Below the pieces are notes generated by a model. That model searched no databases and was not told where the DNA came from. It saw only the letters and a program-made list of their open reading frames with translations. The translations under genes and the position numbers were made by a program. A stretch of 32,876 bases of DNA from a virus. Its lineage: Duplodnaviria > Heunggongvirae > Uroviricota > Caudoviricetes. How positions within the stretch are numbered: the first letter of the stretch is position 1; every line of letters begins with the position of its first letter. The stretch lies in IMG/VR virus record IMGVR_UViG_3300047163_000032, positions 1 through 32,876 of that record; one strand, 5' to 3'. Positions 403 through 32,450 of this stretch are shown here, in pieces.

Positions 403-1563
403 ATGGCAACGACCGCACTCGCAGTACAGCAACCGCCTCGCCGCAGTCTCTTGATGAAGATGGCAAACCACTACGAGATGGAGCCGGACGCTTTTAAGAA
501 CGTGCTGCTGAAGACGGTCTTTCCGCAGGACAAGCAGGTGACCAACGAGCAGTTGGCCGCGTTCTGCATCGTCGCCAACCAATACAACCTAAATCCGATC
601 ACGAAGGAAATCTACGCTTTCCCCGCCAAGGGCGGCGGAATCATTCCGGTTTTGTCCATCGACGGTTGGATCACCTTGATCCAGCGCCAGCCGAGTTACA
701 ACGGCCACAAGTTCGTATACGAGTGGAAGGACGGCAAGCCTGGCAGCGAGATCATTTCCTGCACTTGCGTGATCTACCGCAAGGGCTTCGAGTTTCCGCT
801 GGAGTTCACCGAGTATTTCGTCGAGTGCGTTCGATTAACGGACGTTTGGAAGTCTAAGCCGGTGCGGATGTTGACCCACAAAACCTATATCCAAGCGGCG
901 CGGTACGCTTTTGGTTTGAGTGGCATCTACGACGAGGACGAGGCGGAACGGATTCTGGAGTCGGAGAAAGCGACTCCGGTTCGGCCAGCGGTGCAGACCC
1001 CCCAGCGCGTCCAAACGGTTGAGGCGAAGCCAGTCCAACAATCGGACGTCCCGAAGGGAGAAATTCCGCAGAAGACGGTGGAAACGCCAAAGCAGACCAT
1101 TGAGGATCGCGTTGCCCAAGCATCCACCATTGGGTGGAACCAGCGGCAGGCCGAAGCGCAGCGGGTTGCCGAGGATGGTCACCCGGAAGAAGCAGAGGCA
1201 ATTCTTGCGGACGATGGTATTCCGGAAGGGGCCGAGGACGTTGCCGACCTCATTGACTCCGATGGACAGGTCAACAACCCTTTGTCTGAGATGGTGGAGT
1301 CCGGGACGCTGAAGAAGGCCAGCGAAATCGAATCCCCAAAGCCGGGCACCATCGGCAAGGGGTTGGCAAGGCGGCTGCATACTGCCTTGTCAATGAACGG
1401 AAAGAAGACGGGGTGGACCGAGGCCCGGTTCAGGAAAGAAATTCTTGAAGACAATCCGGCGTTGAAGCATATCGTTCACTTCTCGGATATTCCGAAAAAA
1501 GATTACGAGATGTATCGGATGTACGACATCGCAGTCGGGCAGTTCGACCCCAACGCGGAGTAA
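403..1563 (+). CDS. bet: Red-beta/RecT-family single-strand annealing recombinase
   Basis: IVANQYNLNPITKEIYAFP..GGGIIPVLSIDGW and W..KPVRML.HK..IQAARYAFGLSGIYDEDEAERI closely parallel lambda Bet motifs; long low-complexity C-terminal extension. Confidence 0.92.
   Translation: MATTALAVQQPPRRSLLMKMANHYEMEPDAFKNVLLKTVFPQDKQVTNEQLAAFCIVANQYNLNPITKEIYAFPAKGGGIIPVLSIDGWITLIQRQPSYNGHKFVYEWKDGKPGSEIISCTCVIYRKGFEFPLEFTEYFVECVRLTDVWKSKPVRMLTHKTYIQAARYAFGLSGIYDEDEAERILESEKATPVRPAVQTPQRVQTVEAKPVQQSDVPKGEIPQKTVETPKQTIEDRVAQASTIGWNQRQAEAQRVAEDGHPEEAEAILADDGIPEGAEDVADLIDSDGQVNNPLSEMVESGTLKKASEIESPKPGTIGKGLARRLHTALSMNGKKTGWTEARFRKEILEDNPALKHIVHFSDIPKKDYEMYRMYDIAVGQFDPNAE
1033..1047. repeat. 15-bp palindromic site, copy 1
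   Basis: GTCCAACAATCGGAC, inside the bet linker. Confidence 0.85.
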
Positions 1564-1673
1564 AAGCAAGGGCCAAAAAGCGCGGTAATGGGCGGGGAAG
1601 GCAACAAGGGCGCGAAAGATACCGAGCCGCCAGCCCTACAGTTTTCAGACCAATCGAGGAAAGGCGGTAAAAA

Positions 1674-2516
1674 ATGGCAGTTGTGTGGACGAAGGGAATA
1701 GAGGTAACCAGAGGGACGGTTTACAGTTTTGATCCCGTTGACATCAAGGTAATCGCAACGCTCAACGGTCGGCACGAGCTTCCCGATATTGAGTGGTTGA
1801 TCGAAGACATGCTCAAGCCCGCAGGAGAGGGCGGCATCAAAGGGCAAATCCAGCCGATCATTGTTCGCAGCGACGGCGGAGCACCTACGCTCATTGCGGG
1901 TCATTCCCGGTGGAGGGCGGTATTCGAGATCAACAAGCGCAAGCTGACTCCGTTTCCCCTGCGGATCAACGCGGTCTACGAGAAGTGCAACGAGGAGGAG
2001 GGATTTATTCTCGGCATTTCCGAAAACCGCTTTCGGAACGCGACAACCGAGTTGGACGACGCGCACAACATCCGCATTCTGGAGAAGTTCGGCAAGACCG
2101 AGGAGGAGATCGCGAGGATTTACTTTCCTCATGCGAAGGATGACAAGGCGCTGAAGAGTGCTATCCATTGGGTGAAGCAGCGGCAGTCTCTTCTTCAGTT
2201 GGCTCCAGAGGCCAAGAAAGCGGTCAAGGAGGGCCGGATCAAGACGACTGCGGCTGTAGCCATCTCCAAGCTGTCCGCAGAGGCGCAGAAGGCGATTGTG
2301 GCCCGTCCAGGGAGCATCAAGGGTTCGGACTTGAAACCTTACTCCGTGCCGAAACCAGCGAAGGAGTCGAAGCAGACATCGTTCGATCCCCAGTTTCTTT
2401 CGCTTCAGACCGCGCTGGAGGCGTTGTTCGCCGAGTGTGACCAACAGAAGGACGTGATGGTGTACGAGGTTCACCGCGACACGCTGAGGGCCGTTAGGGA
2501 GGCATTCGGCAAGTGA
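1674..2516 (+). CDS. ParB/Srx N-terminal domain protein
   Basis: GQIQPIIVR..LIAGHSRWRA motif, then ISENRFR and a helical/HTH-like region, as in ParB-like phage proteins. Confidence 0.8.
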   Translation: MAVVWTKGIEVTRGTVYSFDPVDIKVIATLNGRHELPDIEWLIEDMLKPAGEGGIKGQIQPIIVRSDGGAPTLIAGHSRWRAVFEINKRKLTPFPLRINAVYEKCNEEEGFILGISENRFRNATTELDDAHNIRILEKFGKTEEEIARIYFPHAKDDKALKSAIHWVKQRQSLLQLAPEAKKAVKEGRIKTTAAVAISKLSAEAQKAIVARPGSIKGSDLKPYSVPKPAKESKQTSFDPQFLSLQTALEALFAECDQQKDVMVYEVHRDTLRAVREAFGK

Positions 2517-2776
2517 AGGTATTGAAGGATAGAGAATGGGCTGCGGTTTACACGCAGTGGAAATTGGATAACCCGGAACTCGCCGTTCTCAGTCAACGTT
2601 TGTCCCTAGTCAGGGGCTGTGTCAGAAAGGTTCTGTATGACAACCGGGAAGAGGCAATGAAGGTTATAGAGTTCATGCCGGTTTTCCCCGGCAAGGTGCT
2701 GCACTGCTACCTTTGCGAGATTTGCGCTCACTGGCACATAGGCAATACCAAACTGTGGTGGTTGAGGAGGAAGTAA
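2513..2776 (+). CDS. Hypothetical protein with C-terminal YxCxxCxxWH metal-binding motif
   Basis: HCYLCEICAHWHIG; GTGA overlap with the upstream gene. Confidence 0.6.
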   Translation: MKVLKDREWAAVYTQWKLDNPELAVLSQRLSLVRGCVRKVLYDNREEAMKVIEFMPVFPGKVLHCYLCEICAHWHIGNTKLWWLRRK

Positions 2777-3429
2777 TGCCATTCAATAGCGAATTCAAGA
2801 AGGTAGGGGAACTATATCTTCCAGCGTTCTCCGGTACTCGCGTGATGATGCTCCCGGTTATGCTTGGCGATGACGAGTCGATACCAGAGTTCTTGCACCA
2901 CTACAAGAACGCGGTCAGCGGTCTATTCCAGATGGCGGACGAGGATCACATCGGCAAAGTGGGATACCTCACCATCGACGAAAAAGCCGTCAAGCCGAAG
3001 GCCACTCACCGTAGAGCAGGTCTGCACGTTGACGGCGTGTATCAAGGCGAGTCGGGTGCTTGGGGTGGAGGGAAGGGAACCGGTGGCGGATGGGGAGCGC
3101 GTGGGGCAGGGATGCTCACTGTAGCGTCTCATCCGGGATGCAGGGCGTGGAACCAAGACTTTACCGGATGGCCGGGGTGGGAAGGCGAGTGTGACCACCT
3201 TGCGGAAGAACTTCAAGGCTTAGGAACGCTGTTCGGGGCTAACGAGGTCTACTGGGTGGATGGGATGTGTGTCCATGAATCTGTCCCGCAGCCGGTCGAG
3301 GTCAACCGCCAGTTTGTTCGCCTTTCGATGCCGAGCGATGCACCGTGGTTTGAATGCTACACGGTGAACCCGTTGGGAGTGATGCCGACTGGCGAGATAC
3401 TGCCACGGCGCGAGTTTATGAATCAGTAG
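2776..3429 (+). CDS. Putative 2-oxoglutarate/Fe(II)-dependent dioxygenase
   Basis: GAGGAGG RBS and ATG at 2776. HRRAGLHVDG (HxD), distal VHES (His) and NRQFVRL (Arg) give the facial-triad layout. Confidence 0.6.
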   Translation: MPFNSEFKKVGELYLPAFSGTRVMMLPVMLGDDESIPEFLHHYKNAVSGLFQMADEDHIGKVGYLTIDEKAVKPKATHRRAGLHVDGVYQGESGAWGGGKGTGGGWGARGAGMLTVASHPGCRAWNQDFTGWPGWEGECDHLAEELQGLGTLFGANEVYWVDGMCVHESVPQPVEVNRQFVRLSMPSDAPWFECYTVNPLGVMPTGEILPRREFMNQ

Positions 3430-3456
3430 TAAGACCAGACCAAGGAGGAAACAAAA

Positions 3457-3774
3457 ATGAAAGTCATAGGAACAGCAGCCGGTGGGAGGCTGCTGATAGA
3501 GGCAACCCGAAACGAGGTAGCGCGGTTGAGGGGCTACGACGACGAGTATTCGCTCAAGGACAAAAATCGCGGTTACGGCACAGAACCCGGCGACCAAATC
3601 GACATCGACGGACTGTACAAGCACGTTGTCCACATGAAGGCGATTGAGAAGCGGTTGCTCGAAGCCAAGGCTCAGATTGACCGAGCTTCGGAAGGGCTGC
3701 TTTTGGCTCACGACAAAATCCACACGGCCATGACCCCTGAACCGCCAACCTCGACAGATAAGGAGATTCACTGA
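3457..3774 (+). CDS. Hypothetical protein
   Basis: AGACCAAGGAGGA RBS; TGATG coupling to the next gene. Confidence 0.65.
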   Translation: MKVIGTAAGGRLLIEATRNEVARLRGYDDEYSLKDKNRGYGTEPGDQIDIDGLYKHVVHMKAIEKRLLEAKAQIDRASEGLLLAHDKIHTAMTPEPPTSTDKEIH

Positions 3775-3992
3775 TGGCACAGCGCCAATTGCAATTACCG
3801 CAGAGCAGCATGATTTCCGGGGCGACTTACGACGACGAGACCGGAGAGTTGCTGGTTTCATTCACCAATTCGGGAGCGGTCTACGCTGTTTCCAGCGTCG
3901 ATCCCGGCACGGTTCTCAACTTCGAGGGGGACTCCAGTCCGGGTAGGTTCTGGAACAGCAACTTTCGCGGCAGCGCCACACGGGTGAGCTAA
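3774..3992 (+). CDS. KTSC domain protein
   Basis: SSMISGATYD...LLVSFTNSGAVY.V..V......SSPGRFWNSNFR matches the KTSC pattern. Confidence 0.75.
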   Translation: MAQRQLQLPQSSMISGATYDDETGELLVSFTNSGAVYAVSSVDPGTVLNFEGDSSPGRFWNSNFRGSATRVS

Positions 3993-4633
3993 TGACGCAG
4001 CTCGTAAAAATCCCCGGTGGCACCTTTGAGGAGCAAGGACACCGCTATTGCGACGAGACCGGACAGCGATTGCTCTCGGTCACGTCACTCTTTGAATCGC
4101 TGGGGATGATCGACTACGCCGGGGCCAGTGAAGCGGTACTTCAGTGGAAGTCGGAACTCGGTGTCGCCGTTCATTCCGGGATCGAATATCTGACCGAGGG
4201 GACGCTGGATTGGGACACGGTTGATGAGAACGCCATGCCCTACATCATGTCGTTCGAGGACTGGGCAAGAGAGAGCGGGTATGTATCAACCGGGCGAGAG
4301 CAGCAGGGCATTTTGACGATCCACGGAATGAAATGCGGCTACCGCTACGACAACATTGGCACCATGATCTACAAGGGTCGCAAGCGGTGGGTCATGCTGG
4401 AGTTAAAAAACACCGTTAAATCTTCGCCAACGTGGAAGATTCAGACGGCGGCTTATACGATCCCGGCCCCGAAACTGGAGAACGGGGAGCAGTATCTTCG
4501 ATGCGCGTTGCAGCTTAGGCCGGACGCGCCAGCAATCCCTCACTACTACGAGGATGCGGAGGATGCGAGGTCGTTCGCTCACTTTCTGTACTGCGGGATT
4601 TGGAAACTAAACAACGGGTTCAAACTGAAGTAG
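3992..4633 (+). CDS. PD-(D/E)XK (RecB/Cas4-like) phage exonuclease
   Basis: LSVTS, G.AVHSGIE, YRYDNIG, LELK and W.IQTAAY motifs; sits in the same module as bet. Confidence 0.75.
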   Translation: MTQLVKIPGGTFEEQGHRYCDETGQRLLSVTSLFESLGMIDYAGASEAVLQWKSELGVAVHSGIEYLTEGTLDWDTVDENAMPYIMSFEDWARESGYVSTGREQQGILTIHGMKCGYRYDNIGTMIYKGRKRWVMLELKNTVKSSPTWKIQTAAYTIPAPKLENGEQYLRCALQLRPDAPAIPHYYEDAEDARSFAHFLYCGIWKLNNGFKLK

Positions 4634-4649
4634 ACCAAGGAGGACGCAA

Positions 4650-5438
4650 ATGGCAACAGCAGTCACAGATATCGCAGTTCGTTTGAAGTCGGAGATTCTC
4701 GGCCCCGAGTCTCCGTTCGAGGTGGAGCGTATCGCTCTGCGGCAGGAGTACCATCAGATTCTCGCAGGCGCGGCGAAGGTTGTGGTTACCGACCACACTA
4801 CCAAATCAATCGCTGTCGAGCACGGTCGTCTGTTGCAAGCGGCTTCGATCAAGTCCACCGAGTTTTTCAAGCGGTACAAGAAACAAATCGATGAGGTGAA
4901 GGACGTTGTTCTGGCGGCTGAGAAGTCGGACGTTGGAGCGATCACTTCCGAGAAGAGCAGGCTGGCGAACTCAATCAGCAAGTTCGATGCTGAAGAGTTG
5001 GCGAGAAAGCGCGAGCAGGAACGCAAAGACCGCGAGGAAGCGGAAAGGCTTCTGAGGGAAGAGCAGATTCAGCGAGCTATCGAACTTGAGCAGTCGGGCA
5101 ACAATCAGGAAGCGGAGCGCGTGCTTGAAGAGGAACCGATGCCTCTTCCGGTGATCCAGCAGCGCAGCACAGCCGCTCCGGTATCCGGTTTTGTGGGCCG
5201 CACGACATGGAAGGGGCGGCTGATCGGGTCGAACGATCCCGATATCGACACAGCCGAAAGGAAGGCGCGGCAGAGCCTGTTTGCCTTGGTCAAAGCCATT
5301 GCCAACGGTCAGGCCCCGCTGGAACTCATCAAGCTGGACGAATCGTTTCTCAACAAACAGGCGGCATCGTTTCGGCAGGGTTTGAACTACGTCGGATGCG
5401 AGGCTTACGAGGTCAAGTCGAGCAACTTTAGGGCGTAA
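4650..5438 (+). CDS. Coiled-coil hypothetical protein of the recombination module
   Basis: AGACCAAGGAGGA RBS; long E/R/K-rich helix and a G-R-T-T-W-K C-terminal segment. Confidence 0.65.
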   Translation: MATAVTDIAVRLKSEILGPESPFEVERIALRQEYHQILAGAAKVVVTDHTTKSIAVEHGRLLQAASIKSTEFFKRYKKQIDEVKDVVLAAEKSDVGAITSEKSRLANSISKFDAEELARKREQERKDREEAERLLREEQIQRAIELEQSGNNQEAERVLEEEPMPLPVIQQRSTAAPVSGFVGRTTWKGRLIGSNDPDIDTAERKARQSLFALVKAIANGQAPLELIKLDESFLNKQAASFRQGLNYVGCEAYEVKSSNFRA

Positions 5439-5570
5439 ATTTTTACGGCAGATGTCTTGCCGCCAGCCACTAACTGACCTTCCACGAGCCTATAGATCAA
5501 GTCAACTGGTGATTGAGTGCAGTTCGTTTAACGAAGGCTTTAAGGTGGCTGGCGAGAAGGCATAGGAGGA

Positions 5571-6068
5571 ATGACGATGAAGATTGAGATTGATTTGAAC
5601 GACATACTTGGCGACGAATATGGAGCGGAGACGCTACAGGAAAGTGTGCGCCGCCAAGTTATCGACAGCGTTTCTGCAACAGTAAAAAAAGGCGTGGGAG
5701 ATCGGATCGACAAAGCCGTTTCCGAGACAATTTCACAGAACCTAAACATCTACTTGCAAAAGGAGCTTCCCGCCCTTTGCGCCTCAATCATGGAGGCTGA
5801 ATACACGCCTATCAGCGATTACGGAAGCAAGGGAGAACCGACAACGCTCAGGAAGTCGCTGCTAAAGACGATCACATCCTCGATGGTCTACAAGCCGACA
5901 ACGTACAGCAGCGACAAGAACGCTTTTACGAAGGCTGTGGATGCCGTGGTGGAATCGCAGTTAGCCATTTTCAAGGCTGATTTCAACAAGACCGTCGATG
6001 CCACCTTCACCGCCGCAGCAATGCAATACGCAACGCATACCTTGAAGAAAAAACTAGGCATTGAGTAG
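5571..6068 (+). CDS. Hypothetical protein
   Basis: AGGAGG RBS; 165 aa ORF. Confidence 0.65.
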   Translation: MTMKIEIDLNDILGDEYGAETLQESVRRQVIDSVSATVKKGVGDRIDKAVSETISQNLNIYLQKELPALCASIMEAEYTPISDYGSKGEPTTLRKSLLKTITSSMVYKPTTYSSDKNAFTKAVDAVVESQLAIFKADFNKTVDATFTAAAMQYATHTLKKKLGIE

Positions 6069-6093
6069 TAACGACATAAGGGAGGAGTCAAAA

Positions 6094-6423
6094 ATGGGAT
6101 ATACGCCGGGGCCTTGGGAAATCGAGCACAGCGATCAAGAGCCGGACAGCGACGGAAACTCGCACATCTGGATTCGTCCAAGCGAGTTTCGCTACGGTCG
6201 TGACTATCTTCGCGTTTCCGGATGGATGTCGGAAGAAAACGCCCGGATCATCTCAGCGGCTCCAGACTTGCTTGAGGCGCTGATTATGGTTCGGGACGCG
6301 GACGAGGATTGCAAACGCGACGGTTTGCCAACGATCCCGAACCCTGCCCGATGGAAAATCGACGCCGCAATCGCAAAGGCAGTCCAACAGTTGGACGGAG
6401 GCGACCATGCCGGACAGCATTAA
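6094..6423 (+). CDS. Phage 'TPGPW...AAPDLLEAL' family protein, copy 1
   Basis: GGAGGAG RBS and ATG at 6094; YTPGPW and NARIISAAPDLLEAL motifs. Confidence 0.75.
   Translation: MGYTPGPWEIEHSDQEPDSDGNSHIWIRPSEFRYGRDYLRVSGWMSEENARIISAAPDLLEALIMVRDADEDCKRDGLPTIPNPARWKIDAAIAKAVQQLDGGDHAGQH
6382..6396. repeat. 15-bp palindromic site, copy 2
   Basis: GTCCAACAGTTGGAC, abutting the RBS of the DGQHR/ParB-like gene. Confidence 0.9.
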
Positions 6424-7441
6424 GATGATAAACGCGGCACTTGACGAAGAAGGAAGTGAAATTATTCTTCGCGGGGTGATCGACCCGGTATCGCTTCAGA
6501 GTTTGCTTGTGGACGACTACCAGCGGGAGATTCTTCCTTCATCGCGCATCCGGGAACTCGTCAAAGGCTTTGACAGGGGCGGAGTTCCGGACATTGAACT
6601 TGGAATGCGCGGCGGTTCATTCATTGAGAGAGAGGGGAACTTCTATCTCCAGAACCAGGTCTATATCATCGACGGTTTGCAACGGAGAACTGCCGCTGTC
6701 GAATTCATGCGAACCGGAAAGATTCCCCGGCTCGGGGCCACCGTTCACTTCAACACGTCCGCAGCGTGGGAGCGGGAGCGTTTCCGAATGTTGAACGTTT
6801 CCCGCGCCAAGCTATCAGCAAATGTCCTGCTTCGCAACGAGAGAGCGGAGAATCCCGCAATTGAGATGCTCTTTACTCTATGTAAAGACTCAACGTTTGC
6901 GCTTCATAACCGCGTGTCTTGGCAGCAGAATATGCGCCGGGACCACCTGATCGGCGGGAATTTGTTGGCGAAATCCGCAATGGCGCTGCATCGGCGGTTT
7001 CATGCAAACTTGATGTCTACCGACTACCGGACTTCGGCTGAGGCGTTGAAAAAACTCATGGCGAAGGTCGGCAGGACGGTCGTCAGGGAGAACATCAAGA
7101 GGTATTGGGAGTGCTTGGACGCTTGCTTTGATGTTCGCGCCACGGCTTACGCTGTGTCGGCTCCGTATCTGCGCGGCGGGTTCCTGCAAACATTGGGTAG
7201 CGTGTTTTCCTACCATCGAGACTTTTGGGCCGACGCCAACCTAGACGTTCCGAGGGAGATTCAAAAGAAACTCGCAACTTTTCCTATTCGAGACCCGCAC
7301 ATTTCTTCCCTGTGCTCGGCTTCCGGCAAGAGCAGGGCCATTCTGTACGACCTGATCGTCAAGCACATCAACAGCGGCAAACGGTCGAAGAAGATCGCAA
7401 GATTCGATGCCGTGGACACCCCAGAGGGAGATGAGGAGTGA
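6407..7441 (+). CDS. ParB-superfamily protein of DGQHR/DndB-like type
   Basis: DYQRE followed by YIIDGLQRRTA, then FRMLNVSRAKLS; GGAGG RBS. Confidence 0.6.
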   Translation: MPDSIKMINAALDEEGSEIILRGVIDPVSLQSLLVDDYQREILPSSRIRELVKGFDRGGVPDIELGMRGGSFIEREGNFYLQNQVYIIDGLQRRTAAVEFMRTGKIPRLGATVHFNTSAAWERERFRMLNVSRAKLSANVLLRNERAENPAIEMLFTLCKDSTFALHNRVSWQQNMRRDHLIGGNLLAKSAMALHRRFHANLMSTDYRTSAEALKKLMAKVGRTVVRENIKRYWECLDACFDVRATAYAVSAPYLRGGFLQTLGSVFSYHRDFWADANLDVPREIQKKLATFPIRDPHISSLCSASGKSRAILYDLIVKHINSGKRSKKIARFDAVDTPEGDEE

Positions 7442-7632
7442 AGAAGATTATTCACTTTGTTTTTTCGATATTTGTCCTCAACGCGATGTCTCTTGAAATG
7501 TGGTGCGCGGTAGGGCGGATGCAGCAGGACAATCTCTTGGGCTCTTTAGAATGGGTGGCTGTGGGCATGGGCACATTCGTGGTCTGGGTGATTGTCGGAA
7601 GGTGGTTAATGAAGGAGGGCTATGCCAAGTAG
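7438..7632 (+). CDS. Small membrane protein
   Basis: Two hydrophobic segments; GTGA overlap. Confidence 0.55.
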   Translation: MKKIIHFVFSIFVLNAMSLEMWCAVGRMQQDNLLGSLEWVAVGMGTFVVWVIVGRWLMKEGYAK

Positions 7633-7885
7633 GAAAAAAGACCCGTTGGAACCGGGTTTGCCGATGATCCAAAGGCTGTGCAGGCTGTATCGCGTCAGCG
7701 CACGGAAACTGGCGAGGGAGGTTAACTTGGCTCCGTCCACAATGGCTGAGATCGTCTTCAGGGGCCGCGTACCGAGCGGAGACACGGCGATTCTCATATC
7801 GAGGTACTTCCGCAAGTTGGGAAGGATCAACGACGATCTGGGGGAGTACAGCGTGGAAGCAATCTGGGGAGAATCTATCAAATGA
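7622..7885 (+). CDS. XRE/Cro-like helix-turn-helix protein
   Basis: VSARKLAREVNLAPSTMAEIVFRGRVPSGDTAILISRYF fits an HTH_3-like pattern. Confidence 0.65.
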   Translation: MPSRKKDPLEPGLPMIQRLCRLYRVSARKLAREVNLAPSTMAEIVFRGRVPSGDTAILISRYFRKLGRINDDLGEYSVEAIWGESIK

Positions 7886-8854: not shown

Positions 8855-9339
8855 TGTTGACTGCGCCAGAACCTCAAGACCGGCGTGCGGCGTTTGTAGA
8901 AGACCTGAAGAGATACTGGGATTTCGTGAACCGCAACAATCCAACTGTCGGATTTCAGTACGGTGCAATTGATGGCCGAGCGGTCAGAACCTTCTTGAAG
9001 AACTGGCCAGACATGGATCAAGAGACATGGAGAAAATGTCTCAGTAACCGCGCCAAGAGCGTCATGAACCCAGCCGAGCAGTTCTGCTACTGGATACCCA
9101 AATTGCCCAGCTATCTTGCAGGCCCACTTGACCAATTTGGGAGACTCAAAGACCAAGGAGGAAATAAGCACAGTGACCACGAAAGCCTTGCAGAAAAAAA
9201 CCGCAGCAATCTCCAAGAGTTCGTCGGTGGAGGACGAAGAGAAGAAAGCGTTGCTGGCAGAGTTCCTGCGCCAAGTGTGCTTGGTGGCAAACAGGCCGGT
9301 CTCGAAAGAACTCGCGGAATGCTACTGGGCGCAGATTAA
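8842..9339 (+). CDS. Hypothetical protein, possibly replication-initiator-like
   Basis: GGAGG RBS. The function is suggested only by position upstream of a loader-like gene and dnaB. Confidence 0.5.
   Translation: MEDLVLTAPEPQDRRAAFVEDLKRYWDFVNRNNPTVGFQYGAIDGRAVRTFLKNWPDMDQETWRKCLSNRAKSVMNPAEQFCYWIPKLPSYLAGPLDQFGRLKDQGGNKHSDHESLAEKNRSNLQEFVGGGRREESVAGRVPAPSVLGGKQAGLERTRGMLLGAD
8939..8953. repeat. 15-bp palindromic site, copy 3
   Basis: ATCCAACTGTCGGAT, inside 8842-9339. Confidence 0.8.
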
Positions 9340-11798: not shown

Positions 11799-12614
11799 AT
11801 GGAAACGAACATCGAGATACAGCAACAGGAAGAGCAGCCGTTAGTCCCCGATCTACTTGTCGAGGCCGACCGTGTTAAGGCCGAGGTGGTTTCGTGGGAT
11901 AAAGAGGTCATCGAGGGTCTCACAAGTATCAGCAAGGGGTCGATGCGGGCCGGGTGGTTCGGCCACAAGATTCAGGCGGCCAAGAAATTCGGATTGCTCG
12001 GATTCAACACCGAAGACGAATACTGGGAAGAGCGCGGTTTCCGGCGATCCACTTGGTATCGCAACACCAAAATCGCAAGCTGCTTTCAGAAACTTGATCT
12101 TGACGCTTTTTTGGGAATGACGCTCAAGAACGCGGAACTGTTGGTGGATCAGGTTCCAGAAGAGGAACGCCAGAAGACCTACTGGGTAAAGTTCGCCCAA
12201 ACCTTGAAGCACGAGAAATTGTTGGAGAAGGTCAACGCCAAGTACCCAGTCCAACAGTCGGACGACGAGGAAGAGGTCATCGAGACCGCCGAAGACAAGT
12301 TCGGCTACATCAAGATACCCTGCATCAAGGCGCGGCAGCAGGCGGTTCTGGACGGCTTGGAGCAGTTCAAAAACAAGCACAGCCTCAACACCATCGGGCA
12401 GGCTTTGGAGATGCTCATCACCGAGTACACCGATCGGGTGACATTTGTGGGATTTATCTCCGACCAGTTGCCGATCCTTCAGTTTGCACTCAAGAAGGAA
12501 GGCAGCGTGGAAGACGTTGCGGACGCGCTCAGGATGGCCCTACAGAGCCACGTTATCGGCCTGGCGGAGATACTCGCCAACAAAACAGGCAAAGAGCCTG
12601 TAGCGGCTTCCTAG
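11799..12614 (+). CDS. Hypothetical protein
   Basis: ATG at 11799 just after the dnaB stop; long coherent ORF. Confidence 0.65.
   Translation: METNIEIQQQEEQPLVPDLLVEADRVKAEVVSWDKEVIEGLTSISKGSMRAGWFGHKIQAAKKFGLLGFNTEDEYWEERGFRRSTWYRNTKIASCFQKLDLDAFLGMTLKNAELLVDQVPEEERQKTYWVKFAQTLKHEKLLEKVNAKYPVQQSDDEEEVIETAEDKFGYIKIPCIKARQQAVLDGLEQFKNKHSLNTIGQALEMLITEYTDRVTFVGFISDQLPILQFALKKEGSVEDVADALRMALQSHVIGLAEILANKTGKEPVAAS
12249..12263. repeat. 15-bp palindromic site, copy 4
   Basis: GTCCAACAGTCGGAC, inside 11799-12614. Confidence 0.9.
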
Positions 12615-22706: not shown

Positions 22707-23264
22707 ATGTCAGCTACCCAGTGTTTTCGATGCGAAGCAATCAATGGAGGTGCGGGGGATTTCCCGCTCAAACTCAATCCAGAAACGATGTGGTTTCAGT
22801 GCTCAAAAGGCCATCAAGTGACGGCTGACGAGGTAAGCGAAGCCATCCAAAACAAGCCGTTGGAGGAGGTAAAGAAGAAGAACGGCAGACCCAGGAACAC
22901 CCCCGATTTGGCGGATTTATCGGACAAAAAACAGGCAAAAACAGCCTCAGAAACCCCCGAAAACGGCGATTTTGAAGTCTCGTCGGAGATCGAAAAAGTG
23001 CAGCAAAACGATAACGGTTTAGGGGAGTTTATCGACGAGCACGGAACCAAGTGGTCAATCGGCGCAGACTTCTCGCTCAACGGGGACTTTCAGGTCGTTA
23101 TTTTCGCGGACGGTGATCAGCTTATCCCGGTTCGTGTGCCCCATTTGTACCTCGAATCCATCGGCCAAGAAGCCGAAAATGAGGACAAGACGGTTGTTGA
23201 GTGGCTGTCGGAGCGAATTTCTGAGTCGTTGGAGAACTATTTCGTTGCCGTAAAAACCGTTTAA
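22707..23264 (+). CDS. Hypothetical protein with N-terminal Zn ribbon
   Basis: GGGAGG RBS and ATG at 22707; CFRC...CSKGH. Confidence 0.6.
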   Translation: MSATQCFRCEAINGGAGDFPLKLNPETMWFQCSKGHQVTADEVSEAIQNKPLEEVKKKNGRPRNTPDLADLSDKKQAKTASETPENGDFEVSSEIEKVQQNDNGLGEFIDEHGTKWSIGADFSLNGDFQVVIFADGDQLIPVRVPHLYLESIGQEAENEDKTVVEWLSERISESLENYFVAVKTV

Positions 23265-23268
23265 GAAA

Positions 23269-23283
23269 ATCCGACAGTCGGAC
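23269..23283. repeat. 15-bp palindromic site, copy 5
   Basis: ATCCGACAGTCGGAC, intergenic. Confidence 0.9.
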
Positions 23284-25762: not shown

Positions 25763-25765
25763 CCC

Positions 25766-25780
25766 GTCCGACTATCGGAC
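25766..25780. repeat. 15-bp palindromic site, copy 6
   Basis: GTCCGACTATCGGAC, intergenic. Confidence 0.85.
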
Positions 25781-25797
25781 AGAAAGCAGACCCAGCC

Positions 25798-27222: not shown

Positions 27223-27250
27223 CCCGCAACCGACCGAGGAAAACTACCCC

Positions 27251-27532
27251 ATGACAAGCACACTAGACCACCAGCCAATCACGGAAACGGTTATCCGATC
27301 CATTCGCCCGACGCGCACCGGAAACAGCATCTTTATCCCACTCCCCCCGGAATTGTGGCGGAAGTGCAATGGATGTGATTGTCCGACATGTAAGAGCGAT
27401 GGGACAGGAGGATATTGGGATACGCTCGCCGTCGAATCGAAGCCCGGCGCCGACCGATCAAAGGATATGACTTGGACAGTTCATCACCCAACGTTGCACC
27501 CAGCCGCCGACCGCCGCCGCATGAAGTATTAA
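27251..27532 (+). CDS. Small Cys-containing hypothetical protein
   Basis: CCGAGGAAA RBS; CNGCDCPTC. Confidence 0.65.
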   Translation: MTSTLDHQPITETVIRSIRPTRTGNSIFIPLPPELWRKCNGCDCPTCKSDGTGGYWDTLAVESKPGADRSKDMTWTVHHPTLHPAADRRRMKY

Positions 27533-27575
27533 ACCGCAGCCACACGCAAAACAGCCAAAGAGAGAGGGAACCCAA

Positions 27576-27773
27576 ATGCAACGCAAACAAGTACTAGCCA
27601 ACCGCCGCAAGTCAGAGAACAACAACAACACAGCCCCGGCACTCCGCCCCGAAATCGCCGCCCGCGTCGATGTGTACATGGAGACGACAACCCCGGACGG
27701 AAAAAAGCAGTGCCACAAGAGCGACACGCCCGGAATCATTCGCAACACCGGACGACGCGCCCCACTTCGATAG
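27576..27773 (+). CDS. Small hypothetical protein
   Basis: GAGAGGGAA RBS. Confidence 0.45.
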   Translation: MQRKQVLANRRKSENNNNTAPALRPEIAARVDVYMETTTPDGKKQCHKSDTPGIIRNTGRRAPLR

Positions 27774-27797
27774 CCCCGATCCACCCGCAGACCTCAG

Positions 27798-27827
27798 CCC
27801 GGAGCCTCACCGCTCCGGGTTTTTTAT
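27798..27827 (+). terminator. Rho-independent terminator
   Basis: CCCGGAGC-CTCACC-GCTCCGGG followed by TTTTTTAT. Confidence 0.85.
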
Positions 27828-27832
27828 GCCCC

Positions 27833-27872
27833 AAAATAAACGTTGACATCGTACGCAGATAGATGCTTAGAT
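27833..27872 (+). promoter_or_regulatory. Probable promoter
   Basis: A-rich tract then TTGACA at 27843-27848 right after the terminator; the -10 (TTAGAT at 18 nt) is weak. Confidence 0.4.
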
Positions 27873-27914
27873 GTTTCCAGCGCTTGACCAGCGCGGAGAG
27901 AGGAAACCTAAAAA

Positions 27915-28154
27915 GTGAACCAGACCAGACAAAAGAAGATCGACGCAATAGCCGCCAAACTCGACGAGCTACGCGCCGACGTGGAAGCCCTCAAAGACGA
28001 GGAAGAGGAGTATTACGACAACCTCAGCGAGAAGGCCCAGGAGAGCGAGAAAGGCGAAGCCAGTGACCAAGCCCGCTCTTATCTCGAAGACGCTGTAAAC
28101 GGTTTAGAGGAAGTGTTAGACAACCTCCAGAGCGCTTCGGGAACCCTTGATTAG
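27915..28154 (+). CDS. Small highly acidic helical protein
   Basis: AGAGGAAA RBS; ...LKDEEEEYYDNLSEKAQESEKGEASDQARSYLEDAVNGLEE.... Confidence 0.75.
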   Translation: MNQTRQKKIDAIAAKLDELRADVEALKDEEEEYYDNLSEKAQESEKGEASDQARSYLEDAVNGLEEVLDNLQSASGTLD

Positions 28155-28227
28155 TTCCAGACCAGTGGTAAAACCCCTAACCGCTCAGGCCCGACCAGCC
28201 GAGCAGAAAACCGAGGAAAACCCAATC

Positions 28228-28470
28228 ATGGCAGCAGCCCACGTAACACAGTTTCCGACCACCACCACCGCCAAGACCCGCAACCCGCACCGTATCAGCC
28301 TCAGCCAGCTAGCCGAGAATTTCGGCTACGATGACCGCATGGAATTCCTTGAGTCGGAATGCACCGATTCAATTGTTCCGGCTTGCTGTGAATTCGAGTG
28401 CGAAGTAGAGCCGGACGGACGTTGCGAGCACGGATGCCCTAGCGCCCTACTCGCCGCAGGACTCATCTAG
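28228..28470 (+). CDS. Small acidic Cys-rich phage protein
   Basis: CCGAGGAAAA RBS; DSIVPACCEFECEVEPDGRCEHGCPSALLAAGLI. Confidence 0.7.
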   Translation: MAAAHVTQFPTTTTAKTRNPHRISLSQLAENFGYDDRMEFLESECTDSIVPACCEFECEVEPDGRCEHGCPSALLAAGLI

Positions 28471-28485
28471 TTCCGACAGTTGGGA
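28471..28485. repeat. 15-bp palindromic site, degenerate copy
   Basis: TTCCGACAGTTGGGA directly after a stop codon; 3 mismatches. Confidence 0.5.
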
Positions 28486-28520
28486 CAGCAACTCACAAGA
28501 CCAAACCCGAGGAAAAGGCA

Positions 28521-28664
28521 ATGGAACAAGTTCACACCTGCAAAGCTCACGGCCACGCCCACCGCTACACTCGCCACAATTGCGGGCACCAGTATTGCCC
28601 GCTCTACTGGATTGCTTGCCCGCGCTGCTATGGTAGCGAAGAGAACAACCGCCACGCAGCATAA
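28521..28664 (+). CDS. Small His/Cys-rich protein (47 aa)
   Basis: CCGAGGAAAA RBS; HTCKAHGHAH...CGHQYC...CPRC. Not in the ORF track. Confidence 0.6.
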   Translation: MEQVHTCKAHGHAHRYTRHNCGHQYCPLYWIACPRCYGSEENNRHAA

Positions 28665-28720
28665 ACCGCCAGCCGGGAGCGATATCCCGGCACCATCCCA
28701 AGACCGAGAGGAAAAACACC

Positions 28721-29398
28721 ATGAACTGCAAACATTGCAAGCAGCCGATCCACGTAGTGAGCGAGGAAGAACGCAGATCACTAATCTTCGCTTCCCCCTT
28801 CGAGTACAAGCACAATAACAATTATTGGGGATGCGGAGAGTTTGGTCTATTTGCCGAACCGGAGAGTTTGGAGGACAGTCTGAAGAACCCCGAAACCGCC
28901 GAGGCAGTACGCAAGGCCCAACAGGAATGGGACAACGCCGCGCACGAGCTGGCGAACGTTGCCGCCCGATTCCTTGACCAGTACAACGGAATTGAACTTT
29001 GCGCCGGACTGGGACATATCCGGGAAGACTGGAGAGAACTTCGCGAGTTGGCAGCCGAAAACCGCCGCAAGCAAGAAGCATTCCTCCGAGCACTCGCCCC
29101 GCAGTCTGCCAAACCTCAGCGCGGCAACCCGGACAACAGGCCAGAAAACCCACGCGGCAGAGATCGGAGTGTTTACCAAAATCCAGATCGGCAAAATCCG
29201 CTAGTCGAAGCCGCAGCCGAGGCAATCGCTCTGCAAGAGCCGATTGCCGTTTCGGTCGTACCTCACCCCCACCCGACCGCCGCCGACGCCTCAGAACCGA
29301 CGCCAGCGCGGCAAAATGGCGACTTGGAGAGCCTCAAGAGCATCGCTCAAGCGGATGCAGTCTTCAGCCGCCTGCTAGGCGGAAAGGAAGGACTCTGA
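28721..29398 (+). CDS. Hypothetical protein (CxxC N-terminus, Pro-rich tail)
   Basis: GAGAGGAAAAA RBS; MNCKHCKQPI. Confidence 0.65.
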   Translation: MNCKHCKQPIHVVSEEERRSLIFASPFEYKHNNNYWGCGEFGLFAEPESLEDSLKNPETAEAVRKAQQEWDNAAHELANVAARFLDQYNGIELCAGLGHIREDWRELRELAAENRRKQEAFLRALAPQSAKPQRGNPDNRPENPRGRDRSVYQNPDRQNPLVEAAAEAIALQEPIAVSVVPHPHPTAADASEPTPARQNGDLESLKSIAQADAVFSRLLGGKEGL

Positions 29399-29399
29399 C

Positions 29400-29564
29400 A
29401 TGACACGCAAAGAATGGCTTGCCACCGAAGAAGGAAGGCATATTCCCACGCGCAACCCGTTCGTGATCCTCCGGCGTTGGATAAGCGAGGACCAAGCGGA
29501 CTTCTACCCTGAGCGAACCACCGAGCCAAAAGTCTGGGAGGAACCACAGTGGCCGGTTCTCTGA
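29400..29564 (+). CDS. Small hypothetical protein (54 aa)
   Basis: AAGGAAGG RBS; follows the upstream stop. Confidence 0.45.
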   Translation: MTRKEWLATEEGRHIPTRNPFVILRRWISEDQADFYPERTTEPKVWEEPQWPVL

Positions 29565-29667
29565 AGCAACTTAACGCCAAGTTTATCCTGCTTGGCATCG
29601 TCGCCCTAATCGCCTTAGTGTCAATATGTCTGGTATGGCAGGCCGTCAGCCCGGCAGATTTTCGATA

Positions 29668-29682
29668 GTCCAACAGTCGGAC
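29668..29682. repeat. 15-bp palindromic site, copy 7
   Basis: GTCCAACAGTCGGAC; shares 19 bp with copy 4. Confidence 0.9.
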
Positions 29683-29737
29683 GACTCAGCGCCCTGCTTA
29701 AACCGCAGGGCGCTTTGCTTTGGTAGACTGGTCACCC

Positions 29738-29890
29738 ATGCCCAGAACGCCCAGACCGCAAGGCAACCAGACCGCGCCAATACTCAGCTACAAGTGCAGG
29801 AACGCCAAGCACTCCGAATGCTACGCCCGCACCTGTCTTTGCTCTTGCCACGCCGCAGAACCGTCCAAACCGAGCCAAGAGACGCGCTAG
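29738..29890 (+). CDS. Small metal-binding protein (50 aa)
   Basis: CRNAKHSECYARTCLCSCH; preceded by an extended -10 TGGTAGACT (29721-29729), so possibly near-leaderless. Confidence 0.55.
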   Translation: MPRTPRPQGNQTAPILSYKCRNAKHSECYARTCLCSCHAAEPSKPSQETR

Positions 29891-30589
29891 GAGCCTCTAG
29901 GACGCGTCGCCAGAAACCGCAAGGCACTGAGATACCCCGGAATCGCCGGAGGCACCCGCAAACCGCAAGGCAGCGTCTCCCATAAGCAACGAAAAGAACC
30001 ACATCCCCAGTTGGCCGCAGGCCCAGCGGCAGATCAGAACTTCAGCCACACCATTCACAGCCAGACGACCGCCCCCACCCGCAACCAATCCGGTTCCCCA
30101 ACTCCGTCACCCAACACAGCCAGACCGCTACCACTCGCCAGATAACCACCAGACCGCCAGATAACGCACACATCCCTGACACCGCTTCCCCAGGCTACCG
30201 ATAACTTGCGTAGGACGAACTCCAAAAAACGGCCTAAAGAGGGATCAAGGGCGTTGGGAAAACGGAGTGCCGACAATGCGGGAGAATTGGCGTAAGTATA
30301 TGTTTCTAAAGGAGATGGACGCATCCGGTAGCAGGATGGTGGGCAGAGGAGCGCAGCGACGAACCACGAGCGCCCCGGCCCCGGCCCGATGCCTTGCTCG
30401 ACCCGTACCGCGACCTTGCCTACCCGCGTCTCGCCTGTGGCGACCTACCCATGCACCCGCGACTCGCCCCTGCTCTCCGCTCTCCGCGCCTACCCCCCTG
30501 AGCCAAGGGGTGGGCATGGGGGCTCGCGGAAAGACTTGGTCCCAGCGACAGAAATATTCGGTTTTCGTTTTCGAAAAATATGGCACTGA

Positions 30590-30638
30590 GTACACCAAAT
30601 TTAGGTGTACCGCGTACCAAAAGTGTGGTACTCTGTAC
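30590..30638. promoter_or_regulatory. Tandem inverted repeats (operator-like) overlapping an extended -10
   Basis: GTACACC-7 nt-GGTGTAC and GTACCA-6 nt-TGGTAC; TGGTACTCT at 30626-30634. Confidence 0.55.
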
Positions 30639-30640
30639 CT

Positions 30641-31039
30641 GTGAGTTATAAGACGGTAGAAGCGTGTGAATGTGACGAGTGCGGGTGGATTTGGTTGCCG
30701 CAGGTGGAGAGGCCTGAAAGGTGCCCGAAGAGGACGTGCAGGAGCAAGGGTTGGAATAGTGGAGCAAAGCCAGTGGGGGAAGTGGAGAAGATTCTGGCTG
30801 AGAGTGCAATTGAGAAAAAGCCGCAACGCGGCGAAGCGGCGGGGGTAGCGAAAAGCGCTGAGCGGTTTGCGAAGCCAATTTCTCGGCCGGAGTCTGGTTC
30901 GGTTGACAGCGCCAGCCGGACACCTGAAGTCGTGAAGGTTTGCTCGTCATGCGACGAACCTCTGGCGTCAGCAAGAGGGAAATGGGCTTGCCCAAATCAG
31001 TCGTGCGGGATGTACGGAGTTGAGGTCAAACCGAAATGA
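30641..31039 (+). CDS. Double Zn-ribbon protein
   Basis: CDECGWIWLP...PERCPKRTCRSKGWN and CSSC...CPNQSC. The start is uncertain (GTG 30641 or 30605). Confidence 0.6.
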   Translation: MSYKTVEACECDECGWIWLPQVERPERCPKRTCRSKGWNSGAKPVGEVEKILAESAIEKKPQRGEAAGVAKSAERFAKPISRPESGSVDSASRTPEVVKVCSSCDEPLASARGKWACPNQSCGMYGVEVKPK

Positions 31040-31230
31040 TCCACTGCCAAGTCTGCGAAGACGAAATGGAAGACATGGAAGATCCCTGTCGGGTTGGGCT
31101 GGTTTCGGATCGGCTACCGCAGTGGTGTCACTTCACCTACGTTTGCCAGCCATGCGAGGATGCGCTGGTTGGAGTATTCGTGGAAACGGTTGAAGCGATT
31201 CGGATAAGAAATCCGAGGAGGGCGGTTTGA
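31036..31230 (+). CDS. Small CxxC protein
   Basis: ATGA coupling; CQVC...CQPC. Confidence 0.5.
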   Translation: MIHCQVCEDEMEDMEDPCRVGLVSDRLPQWCHFTYVCQPCEDALVGVFVETVEAIRIRNPRRAV

Positions 31231-31454
31231 GGATAACATCGAGGGGGAAACGTGGGTAGAGATTACAGTGAACCGAAGTCGGCAAGCGGTATGGTCATCA
31301 ATTTAGAGAAGGAACTTGCTGCGGCATACGAGAGGGTTCGTCAGGCAGAAGCGCAGACAATAATTTTGAGGCAATACATCTGGGACCACAACCTTAAAAT
31401 TGGGTTCATGCCGAAAGACGACAAGTAGTAAAGTGCGAAAACTAGGAGGACGGT

Positions 31455-31682
31455 TTGATAAAGACGGTTGAGGTGTGGTGCTGCGGAACTGCGGCAGACC
31501 ACGAAGTGGGAAACACGGATGTCACAGTCTACGCCAGTGAAGAGGATTGTCTAGCGGCGAACGAGTGCAGCCGAGTGGCTCCCGAGCTTTGCGCTCCGAG
31601 AAAACTGACGGTCACGTTTGATACCCCTGTGAGGCGACATGACCGAATCAAAGGAGTCGTTTCATTGGAAAGGGTGCGATAA
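31455..31682 (+). CDS. Small hypothetical protein
   Basis: AGGAGG RBS with TTG start. Confidence 0.5.
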   Translation: MIKTVEVWCCGTAADHEVGNTDVTVYASEEDCLAANECSRVAPELCAPRKLTVTFDTPVRRHDRIKGVVSLERVR

Positions 31683-31726
31683 GCTATGACCGAATTGGCG
31701 AAAAACAGGGAGCAACTTGTCAGGTA

Positions 31727-31906
31727 ATGCAAGCGGATCGGAAACGGGAGTCCACTCAGCGTTCCCTGCGAAAGAGAAGGGAGCGGTTTCGTTTGGCTGA
31801 CAAGTGCGCGGACTGTGGAAGTCCAGCCAAAGGATTTTTTCGGTGCCGCGATTGTCGCATGGATCAATACGACAACAAAAAGAAAACCCGGAAGGATGCC
31901 AAGTGA
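31727..31906 (+). CDS. Small basic Zn-finger protein (59 aa)
   Basis: KCADCGSP...RCRDC; not in the ORF track. Confidence 0.5.
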   Translation: MQADRKRESTQRSLRKRRERFRLADKCADCGSPAKGFFRCRDCRMDQYDNKKKTRKDAK

Positions 31907-32112
31907 ACGAGAAAGAATTCCGTCAGCAGGTCAGGGCGCTCATCGAGGCGCTCGTCTATTTGATTTGTGCAATGTCGTGCTGGGTGGTGGCAATTTTCAT
32001 TCAAGACTTAAAGGGGTTTGCGCTCTGGGTGATTGACGGAATGGTTTTCTTTGTCTTGCTGAAATTGACAATGACGCGGTTTTCGAAAGGGGTTTGGCAT
32101 GGGATACCTTGA
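31903..32112 (+). CDS. Small two-helix membrane protein
   Basis: GTGA overlap; two hydrophobic segments. Confidence 0.45.
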   Translation: MNEKEFRQQVRALIEALVYLICAMSCWVVAIFIQDLKGFALWVIDGMVFFVLLKLTMTRFSKGVWHGIP

Positions 32113-32299
32113 CAACCTTCCGGTTTTGCATCTTCGGTGTTTGGGCTGCAACAAGTTGTTCGACTGGCAGATGAGCCACTTGGTGGCGAAGGGCATCAGA
32201 ACCCCACGGATGACATGTAAAACGAAGTGCATGGCGAAGCAGGTATCCAAGTCTATGCTCGAAAAGAACAAGAGAAAGAGGGAAAATGATAACCGGTGA
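32099..32299 (+). CDS. Small Zn-binding protein
   Basis: CLGC...TCKTKC. Confidence 0.5.
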   Translation: MGYLDNLPVLHLRCLGCNKLFDWQMSHLVAKGIRTPRMTCKTKCMAKQVSKSMLEKNKRKRENDNR

Positions 32300-32450
32300 T
32301 TCCTGCAAGAATTGCGGCGAGATCGTCATTCAGCGGCCCAACGATGGCGTTTGGGTTCACTACCCCAGCCTCCAACCAGCCTGCTATAGAATCCTCTACG
32401 CCGAACCGTACATATCGGCGTTCCGAACTTCCGTCCAACAGTCGGACTAG
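32286..32450 (+). CDS. Small CxxC protein ending in the palindromic site (VQQSD*)
   Basis: GAGGG RBS; CKNCG...WVH. Confidence 0.5.
   Translation: MITGDSCKNCGEIVIQRPNDGVWVHYPSLQPACYRILYAEPYISAFRTSVQQSD
32433..32447. repeat. 15-bp palindromic site, copy 8
   Basis: GTCCAACAGTCGGAC, forming the last codons of 32286-32450. Confidence 0.9.

Follow-up and report, generated by a model that had tools for sequence, protein, structure and literature searches.

The dispersed 15-bp palindrome RTCCRACWRTYGGAY lies in the genome of a tailed phage, IMG/VR virus record IMGVR_UViG_3300047163_000032, which is 96,876 bp long, rated complete and labeled G000; the window analyzed is the first 32,876 bp of that record. 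The palindrome is composed of two inverted seven-base arms (RTCCRAC) on either side of a single central base, a 7-1-7 layout, and is found both at gene junctions and within genes. Its copy number, placement and recurrence in relatives support a genome-wide set of candidate protein-docking sites on duplex DNA that is conserved as a system in related phages. In the fuller account, a two-fold symmetric protein encoded by the phage would dock at the palindromes, the product of gene 11799-12614 being the best candidate, and would likely control read-through transcription; we regard the chances of this account as evenly balanced.

An exact search of the window finds eight strict matches to the palindrome, at 1033, 6382, 8939, 12249, 23269, 25766, 29668 and 32433, with those at 12249, 29668 and 32433 being identical copies of GTCCAACAGTCGGAC, and 0.00 matches are expected from 100 dinucleotide-preserving shuffles. 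All eight copies listed in a first-pass annotation of the DNA, including the three identical ones, are recovered in this way. Seven further strict sites lie beyond the window (36352, 44323, 48406, 66346, 71008, 79570 and 89546), giving 15 in the 96.9-kb genome. A scan of the whole genome with a weight matrix built from the sites themselves returns 19 sites scoring 19-25 bits, with 19 bits or more as the threshold for membership, and the next best sequence scores 12.5 bits so that the distribution is bimodal. The four near copies added by the scan are at 34023, 64911, 79334 and 82321. The sequence at 28471..28485 (TTCCGACAGTTGGGA), previously counted as a degenerate copy, scores 7.3 bits, a value exceeded by ~10 random positions, and is background and not a member of the set.

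The sites are concentrated at gene boundaries. Using our own gene calls, 11 of the 19 are intergenic or within 30 nt of a gene end compared with 26.5% of positions (p = 0.004), and the other eight are deep within coding sequence. The perfect palindrome at 6382..6396 (GTCCAACAGTTGGAC) abuts the GGAGG ribosome-binding site of gene 6407-7441, with the ATG 10 nt downstream; the site at 23269..23283 (ATCCGACAGTCGGAC) begins 4 nt past the stop of a gene encoding a zinc ribbon and a ribbon-helix-helix (RHH) domain and ends 8 nt ahead of the ATG of 23292-23501; and the intergenic site at 25766..25780 (GTCCGACTATCGGAC) follows the stop at 25762, with an ATG 17 nt downstream at 25798. Including the site at 66346, four sites of G000 have a start codon 7-17 nt downstream. 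The site at 32433..32447 (GTCCAACAGTCGGAC) covers the last codons of 32286-32450, and that at 8939..8953 (ATCCAACTGTCGGAT) is near the 5' end of 8842-9339, where the open reading frame (ORF) 8676-8972 overlaps it. The junction positions at 6382, 23269, 25766 and 32433 agree with those in the first-pass annotation. Two sites are placed directly ahead of intrinsic terminators: the intergenic copy at 29668..29682 (GTCCAACAGTCGGAC) is followed after 5 nt by a strong terminator hairpin (29688..29714, plus strand), and the second pair, outside the window at 89546/89573, has the site 12 nt ahead of a strong terminator. None of the sites in the window is assigned a strand.

Where sites are intragenic they are accommodated in tolerant parts of the encoded proteins. 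The site at 1033..1047 (GTCCAACAATCGGAC) is within the RecT gene (403-1563), in the variable linker past the RecT domain, and is read in-frame as VQQSD. The copy at 12249..12263 (GTCCAACAGTCGGAC) is within 11799-12614 and encodes VQQSD at amino acids 151-155, at the start of an inter-domain linker modeled with a low predicted local distance difference test score (pLDDT; residues 154-171). The longer reading PVQQSD given earlier for both coding copies is correct on translation. The same reading frame (V-Q-Q/R/K-S/L-D) is used by nine of the 11 intragenic sites (1033, 6382, 12249, 32433, 34023, 48406, 64911, 71008 and 82321), which are located in linkers or at gene ends. The weight-matrix scan also bears out the site-free gap between 12.3 and 23.2 kb. 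The methyltransferase block in this region (12600-22700 of the window) has no palindrome inside it and no homologues in any relative examined, and is bracketed by the sites at 12249 and 23269, resembling a recently acquired cargo region.

A search of IMG/VR with the capsid protein gives 161 related stretches, and the relatives assembled in full comprise 26 records, with 45-74% identity of the major capsid protein (MCP) among those bearing palindromes. At least 14 of these 26 soil podophages have a dispersed palindrome of their own, each in its own version, in keeping with the earlier expectation that the system would be conserved in related phages. Palindrome counts across genomes use 6-mer dyads with one mismatch allowed, against shuffled sequence, because counting perfect 5-mer dyads misses degenerate copies (G000 scores only 4). 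About 10 of the palindrome-bearing relatives retain the outer TCC...GGA (or TCT...AGA) and differ in their inner bases and in spacing (14 or 15 bp). The 15-bp 7-1-7 layout is present in G001/G002 (GTCCGATWATCGGAC), G006 (STCCAAAWTTTGGAS, 17 copies), G013 and G025 (TCCAAGNCTTGGA) and G008 (TCCAACNGTTGGA, which is the G000 spelling in a genome of 41% GC). A 14-bp palindrome lacking the central base (7-0-7) is present in G004/G010 (GTCCAKATMTGGAC, 15 copies), G011 (GTCCAAATTTGGAC, the G006 arm minus one middle base), G007 (STCCAGNNCTGGAS, 19 copies), G009 (AGTCCGANNTCGGACT), G003 (GTCYACRYGTAGAC) and G015 (TCCRATATYGGA). Other arms are found in G016/G022 (GTAAACCNGGTTTAC) and in G014 (GTACA-N6-TGTAC), and no such palindrome family is found in G019, G020 or G026. 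The change in spacing is seen most directly in the arm GTCCAAA, which has a central base in G006 (15 bp) and none in G011 (14 bp), two phages with 62% capsid identity.

G001/G002 additionally carry a hybrid site, GTCCGAT-T-CCTGGAC, in four identical copies in G001 (9653, 23969, 51445 and 67399) and at 13210 and 51748 in G002. This class joins two different arms (GAT and AGG), which suggests two specificities or a heterodimer. In G017 (10882, 13978, 41965 and others) and G018, which are without the TCC palindrome, an intergenic TTAA-N4-TTAA followed by ATTGAC occurs; it looks like a promoter-associated motif of another kind.

The preference for gene boundaries extends to the relatives, being significant in five genomes (p = 4e-3 to 5e-5; 0.046 in G007) that include, beyond G000, G004, G006 and G022 and, more weakly, G007. 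Site positions are partly syntenic across genomes even where the spelling differs. A site lies ahead of the tail gene family of 46564-47550 in eight of 14 genomes, G014 included, compared with 2.4 expected, and ahead of the MCP gene in G000, G001, G002 and G003. RecT of G000 and RecT of G001/G002 each have a site in the variable C-terminal linker, but the two positions are not homologous. The G006 sites overlap the TAG stops upstream of them and contribute a GGAG located 6-16 nt ahead of the next start, and the G004 sites at 34544 and 39243 flank tRNA genes, so that the palindrome punctuates a tRNA array too. The ORF 23292-23501, which begins 8 nt past the site at 23269, encodes a small Cys-rich (zinc-binding-like) protein, and downstream of it is a conserved Cys-rich protein of 114 amino acids (23523-23867) whose orthologues in G004, G010 and G011 likewise have a site directly upstream.

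Sites wedged between a stop and the next start could act in RNA, as cistron-junction hairpins with roles in masking the ribosome-binding site, in translational coupling or in marking processing or termination, possibly together with an RNA-binding protein. Such hairpins would suit the distances to the next ATG (7-17 nt in G000, 6-16 nt in G006 and 9-23 nt in G004), the 5-6-bp stems that all four G000 sites adjoining a ribosome-binding site can form, the G006 sites, in which the right arm gives GGAG and the left end overlaps TAG and which are asymmetric in the direction of transcription, and the location of two sites directly before intrinsic terminators and of the G004 sites beside tRNA genes. 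The arms, however, do not covary within genomes. At the 5/11 pair of the G000 sites, read on the sense strand, the combinations are A.C in seven sites (5.2 expected if independent), G.T in six, A.T in four and G.C in two, so that an A.C mismatch is present in 7 of 19 sites, at chance frequency, and G.U is not favored over A.C. The outer pair (positions 1 and 15) also varies independently and is mismatched in five sites, the arms of G004 and G001 behave in the same way, and the hybrid sites of G001 pair over only 4 bp. In G000, whose genes share one strand, the commonest 15-mer is nonetheless found in both orientations (three copies and two), and folding of the sites with their flanks as RNA is no better than for shuffled sequences (z of -0.1 to -2.1). 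A search of the window against Rfam matched no family. Strict identity of the arm sequences would be needless for a hairpin, and the sites are near stops and ribosome-binding sites because any 15-bp insert lands there in so compact a genome. An action in RNA is thus quite improbable. Since the arms vary independently and the RNA folds are weak, the palindrome is better read as a duplex site for a symmetric protein: the pattern of substitutions indicates that selection acts on double-stranded DNA and treats both arms alike, as expected where a protein of two-fold symmetry binds.

The protein could in principle belong to the host, as a global regulator or nucleoid protein, or the sites could be selfish or recombinational elements. 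The spelling, though, is independent of base composition and presumed host: G000 (54% GC) and G008 (41% GC) have a common spelling, whereas G000, G001, G004 and G006 are of like composition and differ. Spelling and spacing change quickly between close relatives, as is typical of a co-evolving phage pair. The repeated units are of 15 bp only, the flanks having no conserved sequence and no target duplications, and the exact 15-mer occurs in IMG/VR on 27 contigs with one match each, which is chance level, with no further multi-copy carrier. A host or selfish origin is therefore improbable. Because the spelling ignores GC content and the inner bases and spacing change fast between close relatives, a phage reader is favored: the reader of the sites is probably determined by the phage, and a host factor is unlikely.

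Among the phage proteins the leading candidate is the 271-amino acid product of 11799..12614 (plus strand), encoded after DnaB, which has a ParB/Spo0J-type (DUF3102-like) helix-turn-helix (HTH) and is without the ParB_N CTPase domain. It contains the ParB-style HTH stretch SRSTWYRxIRIAE and is not fused to a methylase. The best structural matches to the modeled residues 22-148 are the DNA-binding domains of ParB proteins, 1vz0_A (Z 7.5, root mean square deviation 4.1 over 107 residues) and 6s6h_B (Z 6.4), and clusters in AFDB named DUF3102 and ParB/Spo0J HTH match the model. The protein is predicted to form a symmetric homodimer with a score of 0.77 compared with 0.00 for the best control, a mark that 20 of 30 structurally solved pairs and one of 23 solved single chains also attain; at least 71% of contacts recur between the three runs, and pLDDT is at least 69. 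Homologues are found in 10 relatives, among them G001, G003, G004, G006, G008, G013, G015, G016 and G022, all of which have a clear palindrome family. Of the seven genomes at least 90% complete that encode the protein, six have a top palindrome count of 5.5-10 compared with a shuffle maximum of 2-3.5. In G000 (12249) and in G008 a site is present within the candidate's own gene.

Several observations weigh against this assignment and against the transcriptional role proposed with it. The co-occurrence of protein and palindrome, in 10 of 11 genomes with the 11799-12614 family, is imperfect and uncorrected for phylogeny, and a site is present in only two of 10 orthologous genes. The complete genome of G026 encodes a 27%-identical relative, identified with the narrow family alignment (the wide ParB-HTH-like alignment being too divergent for scanning), and has no palindrome family. 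G014 has a palindrome family and no 11799-12614 protein, though it does encode a canonical ParB_N protein, and a search of 85% of the G007 genome, which carries 19 sites, found no homologue. Pfam and PHROGs give no match to the protein, DUF3102 included, and a Z of 7.5 falls within the range that helical proteins reach by chance. G000 and G008 have a common spelling and yet different predicted recognition helices in this family, and no residue-to-base code that holds could be found in the recognition helix of 11799-12614 or in the strands of the RHH proteins. Finally, no sigma-70-like promoter overlaps a site in 1-13000 or 22000-32876 of the window, as judged with a simple consensus, and for this reason classical operator-at-promoter control is not indicated. 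On balance the 11799-12614 protein ranks first among the candidate readers, tentatively and at less than an even chance.

A rival reader is the zinc-ribbon and RHH family, which would bind as a dimer of dimers in the manner of Mnt of phage P22. One member, 22707..23264 (plus strand), has a zinc ribbon and a C-terminal RHH domain over which it aligns to its paralogue, the core gene 39740-40363 located between terminase and portal. The core paralogue is modeled with high confidence (pLDDT 94.7). More than 20 RHH domains match this model, at residues 161-207 and 64-105, with Z of 4.3-5.7 over the whole domain, among them PutA (2rbf; Z 5.7, root mean square deviation 2.5, 43 of 44 residues), Arc, AmrZ, NikR and TacA. 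These domains are revealed only by an exhaustive structural aligner, as a Foldseek search of the PDB with the full-length model gives no match at an E of 0.001 or better, and Z of ~5 is the maximum so small a domain can give. A long coiled coil separates the two RHH units as in tetrameric Mnt, and the annotated Mnt operator, GGTCCAC-G-GTGGACC (GGTCCACGGTGGACC), has the same GTCCA arm and the same 7-1-7 layout, a likeness to the palindromes that could be fortuitous or could point to an RHH reader; it differs in being a single operator at one promoter and in having TCC one base closer to the center. The site at 23269 is 4 nt past the paralogue 22707-23264, in G004 and G006 a site lies 16-18 nt ahead of a family member, and in five of 12 genomes a site is in or near the core gene compared with 1.5 expected. 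The family also evolves fast, with 23-33% identity where the MCP has ~60%. Only the incomplete G023 among the relatives lacks a member, and several genomes encode two paralogues. Such near universality makes it non-discriminating, since it extends to G019, which has no clear palindrome. The same spelling moreover accompanies very different RHH proteins in G006 and G024 (33% identity) and different predicted β-strand residues in G013 and G025, and several of the RHH β-strands have acidic residues at the DNA-facing positions. The RHH family is an unlikely reader by comparison with the 11799-12614 protein.

Palindromes of 14-17 bp are typical of Cro/CI-type dimers, and an early HTH regulator of the subclade formed by G000, G001, G006 and G013 could serve as reader in the manner of a stoperator-binding or phiC31-type global repressor. 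There are two such proteins. The 87-amino acid CI/XRE-type HTH protein at 7622..7885 (plus strand) has homologues only in G001, G002 and G006, and not in G013, and a protein with a double HTH_17 (excisionase/MerR-like) domain is encoded outside the window at 95089-95760 on the minus strand; its gene adjoins RecT and runs opposite to the early operon, a location that suits a repressor. HTH_17 is encoded in all four nearly whole lineages with the 7-1-7 TCC palindrome (among the relatives, G001, G002, G006 and G013 only), three of the four lineages have a site within or at the end of the HTH_17 gene compared with 0.5 expected, and the predicted recognition helices differ between lineages; a search for HTH_17-related loci returned only genomes already in the set and one fragment. 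Both proteins are confined to the one subclade, being absent from the complete palindrome-bearing G015, G016 and G022 and not found in the DNA examined of G003, G004, G007 and G008. The divergent promoter region adjoining the HTH_17 gene has no site in G001 or G006. A lysogenic repressor is not expected as no integrase is found: a tyrosine integrase (PF00589) was not detected in G000 or G001, serine recombinases having not been searched for. The phage is apparently virulent. An HTH regulator of this kind is accordingly hard to favor and, for the system as a whole, we judge it unlikely.

The first-pass annotation had proposed that one of two ParB-fold proteins, 1674..2516 or 6407..7441 (both plus strand), or the XRE protein binds the sites; with a ParB-fold reader they would be parS-like centromeres serving partition or CTP-dependent spreading. 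The ParB_N-like protein 1674-2516 has a weak match to ParB_N (E of 4e-4, below the Pfam cut-off) and to ParB-like PHROGs; 6407-7441 is GmrSD_N/DUF262-like, and the site at 6382 abuts its ribosome-binding site; and KorB of plasmid RK2 illustrates that ParB-family proteins can use dispersed palindromic operators (PMC11790492). Both proteins, however, occur in G000 only, BLAST and jackhmmer finding no homologue in the motif-keeping G001, G002, G006 and G013, and are rejected as family-wide binders. A six-frame search for ParB_N (PF02195) is negative in eight of nine relatives (G001, G002, G003, G004, G006, G007, G013 and G022), and no integrase or other feature suggests the lifestyle of a plasmid or prophage. 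That either of these proteins reads the sites as centromeres is very improbable. Of the original proposal, the two ParB-fold proteins are lost, the XRE protein is limited to three lineages, and the ParB-like idea lives on in altered form in a third protein, 11799-12614, which tracks the palindromes better across relatives. The partition role is not upheld, there being no conserved CTPase-type ParB and no integrase, with ParA not searched for. Other classes of element, namely primase sites (GTC), sigma-54 and extracytoplasmic function promoters, Chi-like sites, nick sites, repetitive extragenic palindromic and miniature inverted-repeat transposable elements, restriction-modification sites and controller-protein boxes, were rejected by reasoning only, because they are short, asymmetric, single-locus or longer in comparison with a 15-bp palindrome that has conserved inner bases and stands at 19 junctions.

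The closest published case is the 17-bp palindrome of the Cluster O mycobacteriophages, Corndog and its relatives, a dyad repeat (7-3-7) in ~34 copies in a genome of ~70 kb (PMC4351075). About a third of those repeats are clearly intergenic, a third are near gene starts and a third are within genes, mostly off predicted promoters; neither integrase nor parAB is present, and the authors' prediction is that a dimeric DNA-binding protein recognizes the repeats, whose function they leave unknown (PMC4351075). The present system is alike in having a genome-wide dyad motif with intergenic and coding copies, no link to promoters and no integrase found. It differs in host phylum, sequence and morphology, this phage being a podophage with an SU10-type adaptor and Cluster O phages being prolate siphophages, and goes beyond Cluster O in that it can be traced through a diverse family whose lineages have their own spellings, with a 1-bp spacing switch, syntenic positions and nameable candidate readers. 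The palindrome system is a further case of a known, unexplained kind of phage genome punctuation.

For a ParB-type reader the best mechanistic model would be KorB and its operator OB on the IncP plasmid RK2, membership here resting on a moderate fold match. KorB is a ParB-type HTH dimer that reads a short dispersed palindrome and controls many operons (PMC11790492). As with KorB-OB, ParB-parS and Noc-NBS, the sites here are short dispersed palindromes (19 copies of 15 bp) and the top structural matches of the candidate are ParB DNA-binding domains. They differ in that the element is a phage and not a plasmid, and in that 11799-12614 is without the N-terminal ParB/Srx CTPase domain, because of which a sliding clamp is not expected. 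The analogy to stoperators that had been drawn earlier survives in part. Stoperators (Cluster A phages, gp71 of L5) are 13-mers that lack symmetry and share the orientation of transcription, and the phages carrying them are temperate and encode an immunity repressor. Placement is shared, in that many copies of one short site are present in short intergenic gaps inside operons, and the defining asymmetry and orientation are not, the sites here being palindromic with no required orientation and no integrase having been found. Also in common is the idea, discussed in PMC4351075, that a bound protein would block transcription running through the site.

Transcription of G000 is nearly all from the plus strand. 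The window encodes, among others, RecT, the weak ParB_N-like protein, the DUF262-like protein, the CI/XRE HTH protein, RusA, DUF5131, DnaB and DUF932, and the rest of the genome encodes terminase, portal, MCP, SU10-type adaptors and two giant proteins, one of which is polyvalent and includes a ddrB-ParB domain and a helicase. Capsid relatives are present on metagenome-assembled contigs labeled Acidobacteriota/Terriglobia, and the hosts of this podophage family are probably Acidobacteriota; among sequencing runs the phage DNA is present in only two, from a moss metagenome that is probably its source, and no RNA run carrying it is listed. A megablast of 12 kb against GenBank phages gives no match, and the word-based homology searches of this analysis return almost only self-matches or seven relatives. 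Pfam and PHROGs have no match for 8842-9339 or 22707-23264, as for 11799-12614, and profile searches against PDB sequences give nothing meaningful for the 11799-12614 or RHH families.

We infer from these features that a protein binds the palindromes, which protein it is and that it affects transcription. A phage-made dimer, or dimer of dimers, would sit on the ~19 sites, each half of the symmetric protein reading one RTCCRAC arm, and the sites, wedged into gene junctions or tolerant protein linkers, would mark most gene blocks. If 11799-12614 is the reader, it may act as a plain site-bound dimer like the DNA-binding domain of KorB or Noc. Because the sites are transcribed through, are not at recognizable promoters and twice stand before terminators, an effect on elongation or on block boundaries is suggested, and the most likely outcome would be control of transcription through the junctions by roadblock, insulation or timing of gene blocks. 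The sites may also have a role in genome organization, replication or packaging. Protein and sites would evolve together to give each lineage its own spelling and its 14- or 15-bp spacing, and such spelling would keep the system private to each phage. A more specific version, unlikely as it stands, is that the CTPase-less ParB/DUF3102-type protein and its palindromes form a fast-evolving address code at ~10-20 junctions per lineage that insulates or times gene blocks or tells the phage's own DNA from that of a co-infecting relative. If true, this would provide a function for the 11799-12614 protein family and for the unexplained repeats of the Cluster O type.

Junction palindromes have been published for Cluster O phages, as stoperators and as KorB operators on plasmids, with reader and purpose mostly unexplained. 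The value of this phage family is that it offers at least 14 natural site variants, with changes in the inner bases, a spacing switch, hybrids and site-less lineages, together with a short list of four candidate readers. An identified reader would give a function either to a ParB-like DNA-binding family or to the conserved zinc-ribbon/RHH protein of the packaging module, and would show how such phages punctuate their long one-strand operons.

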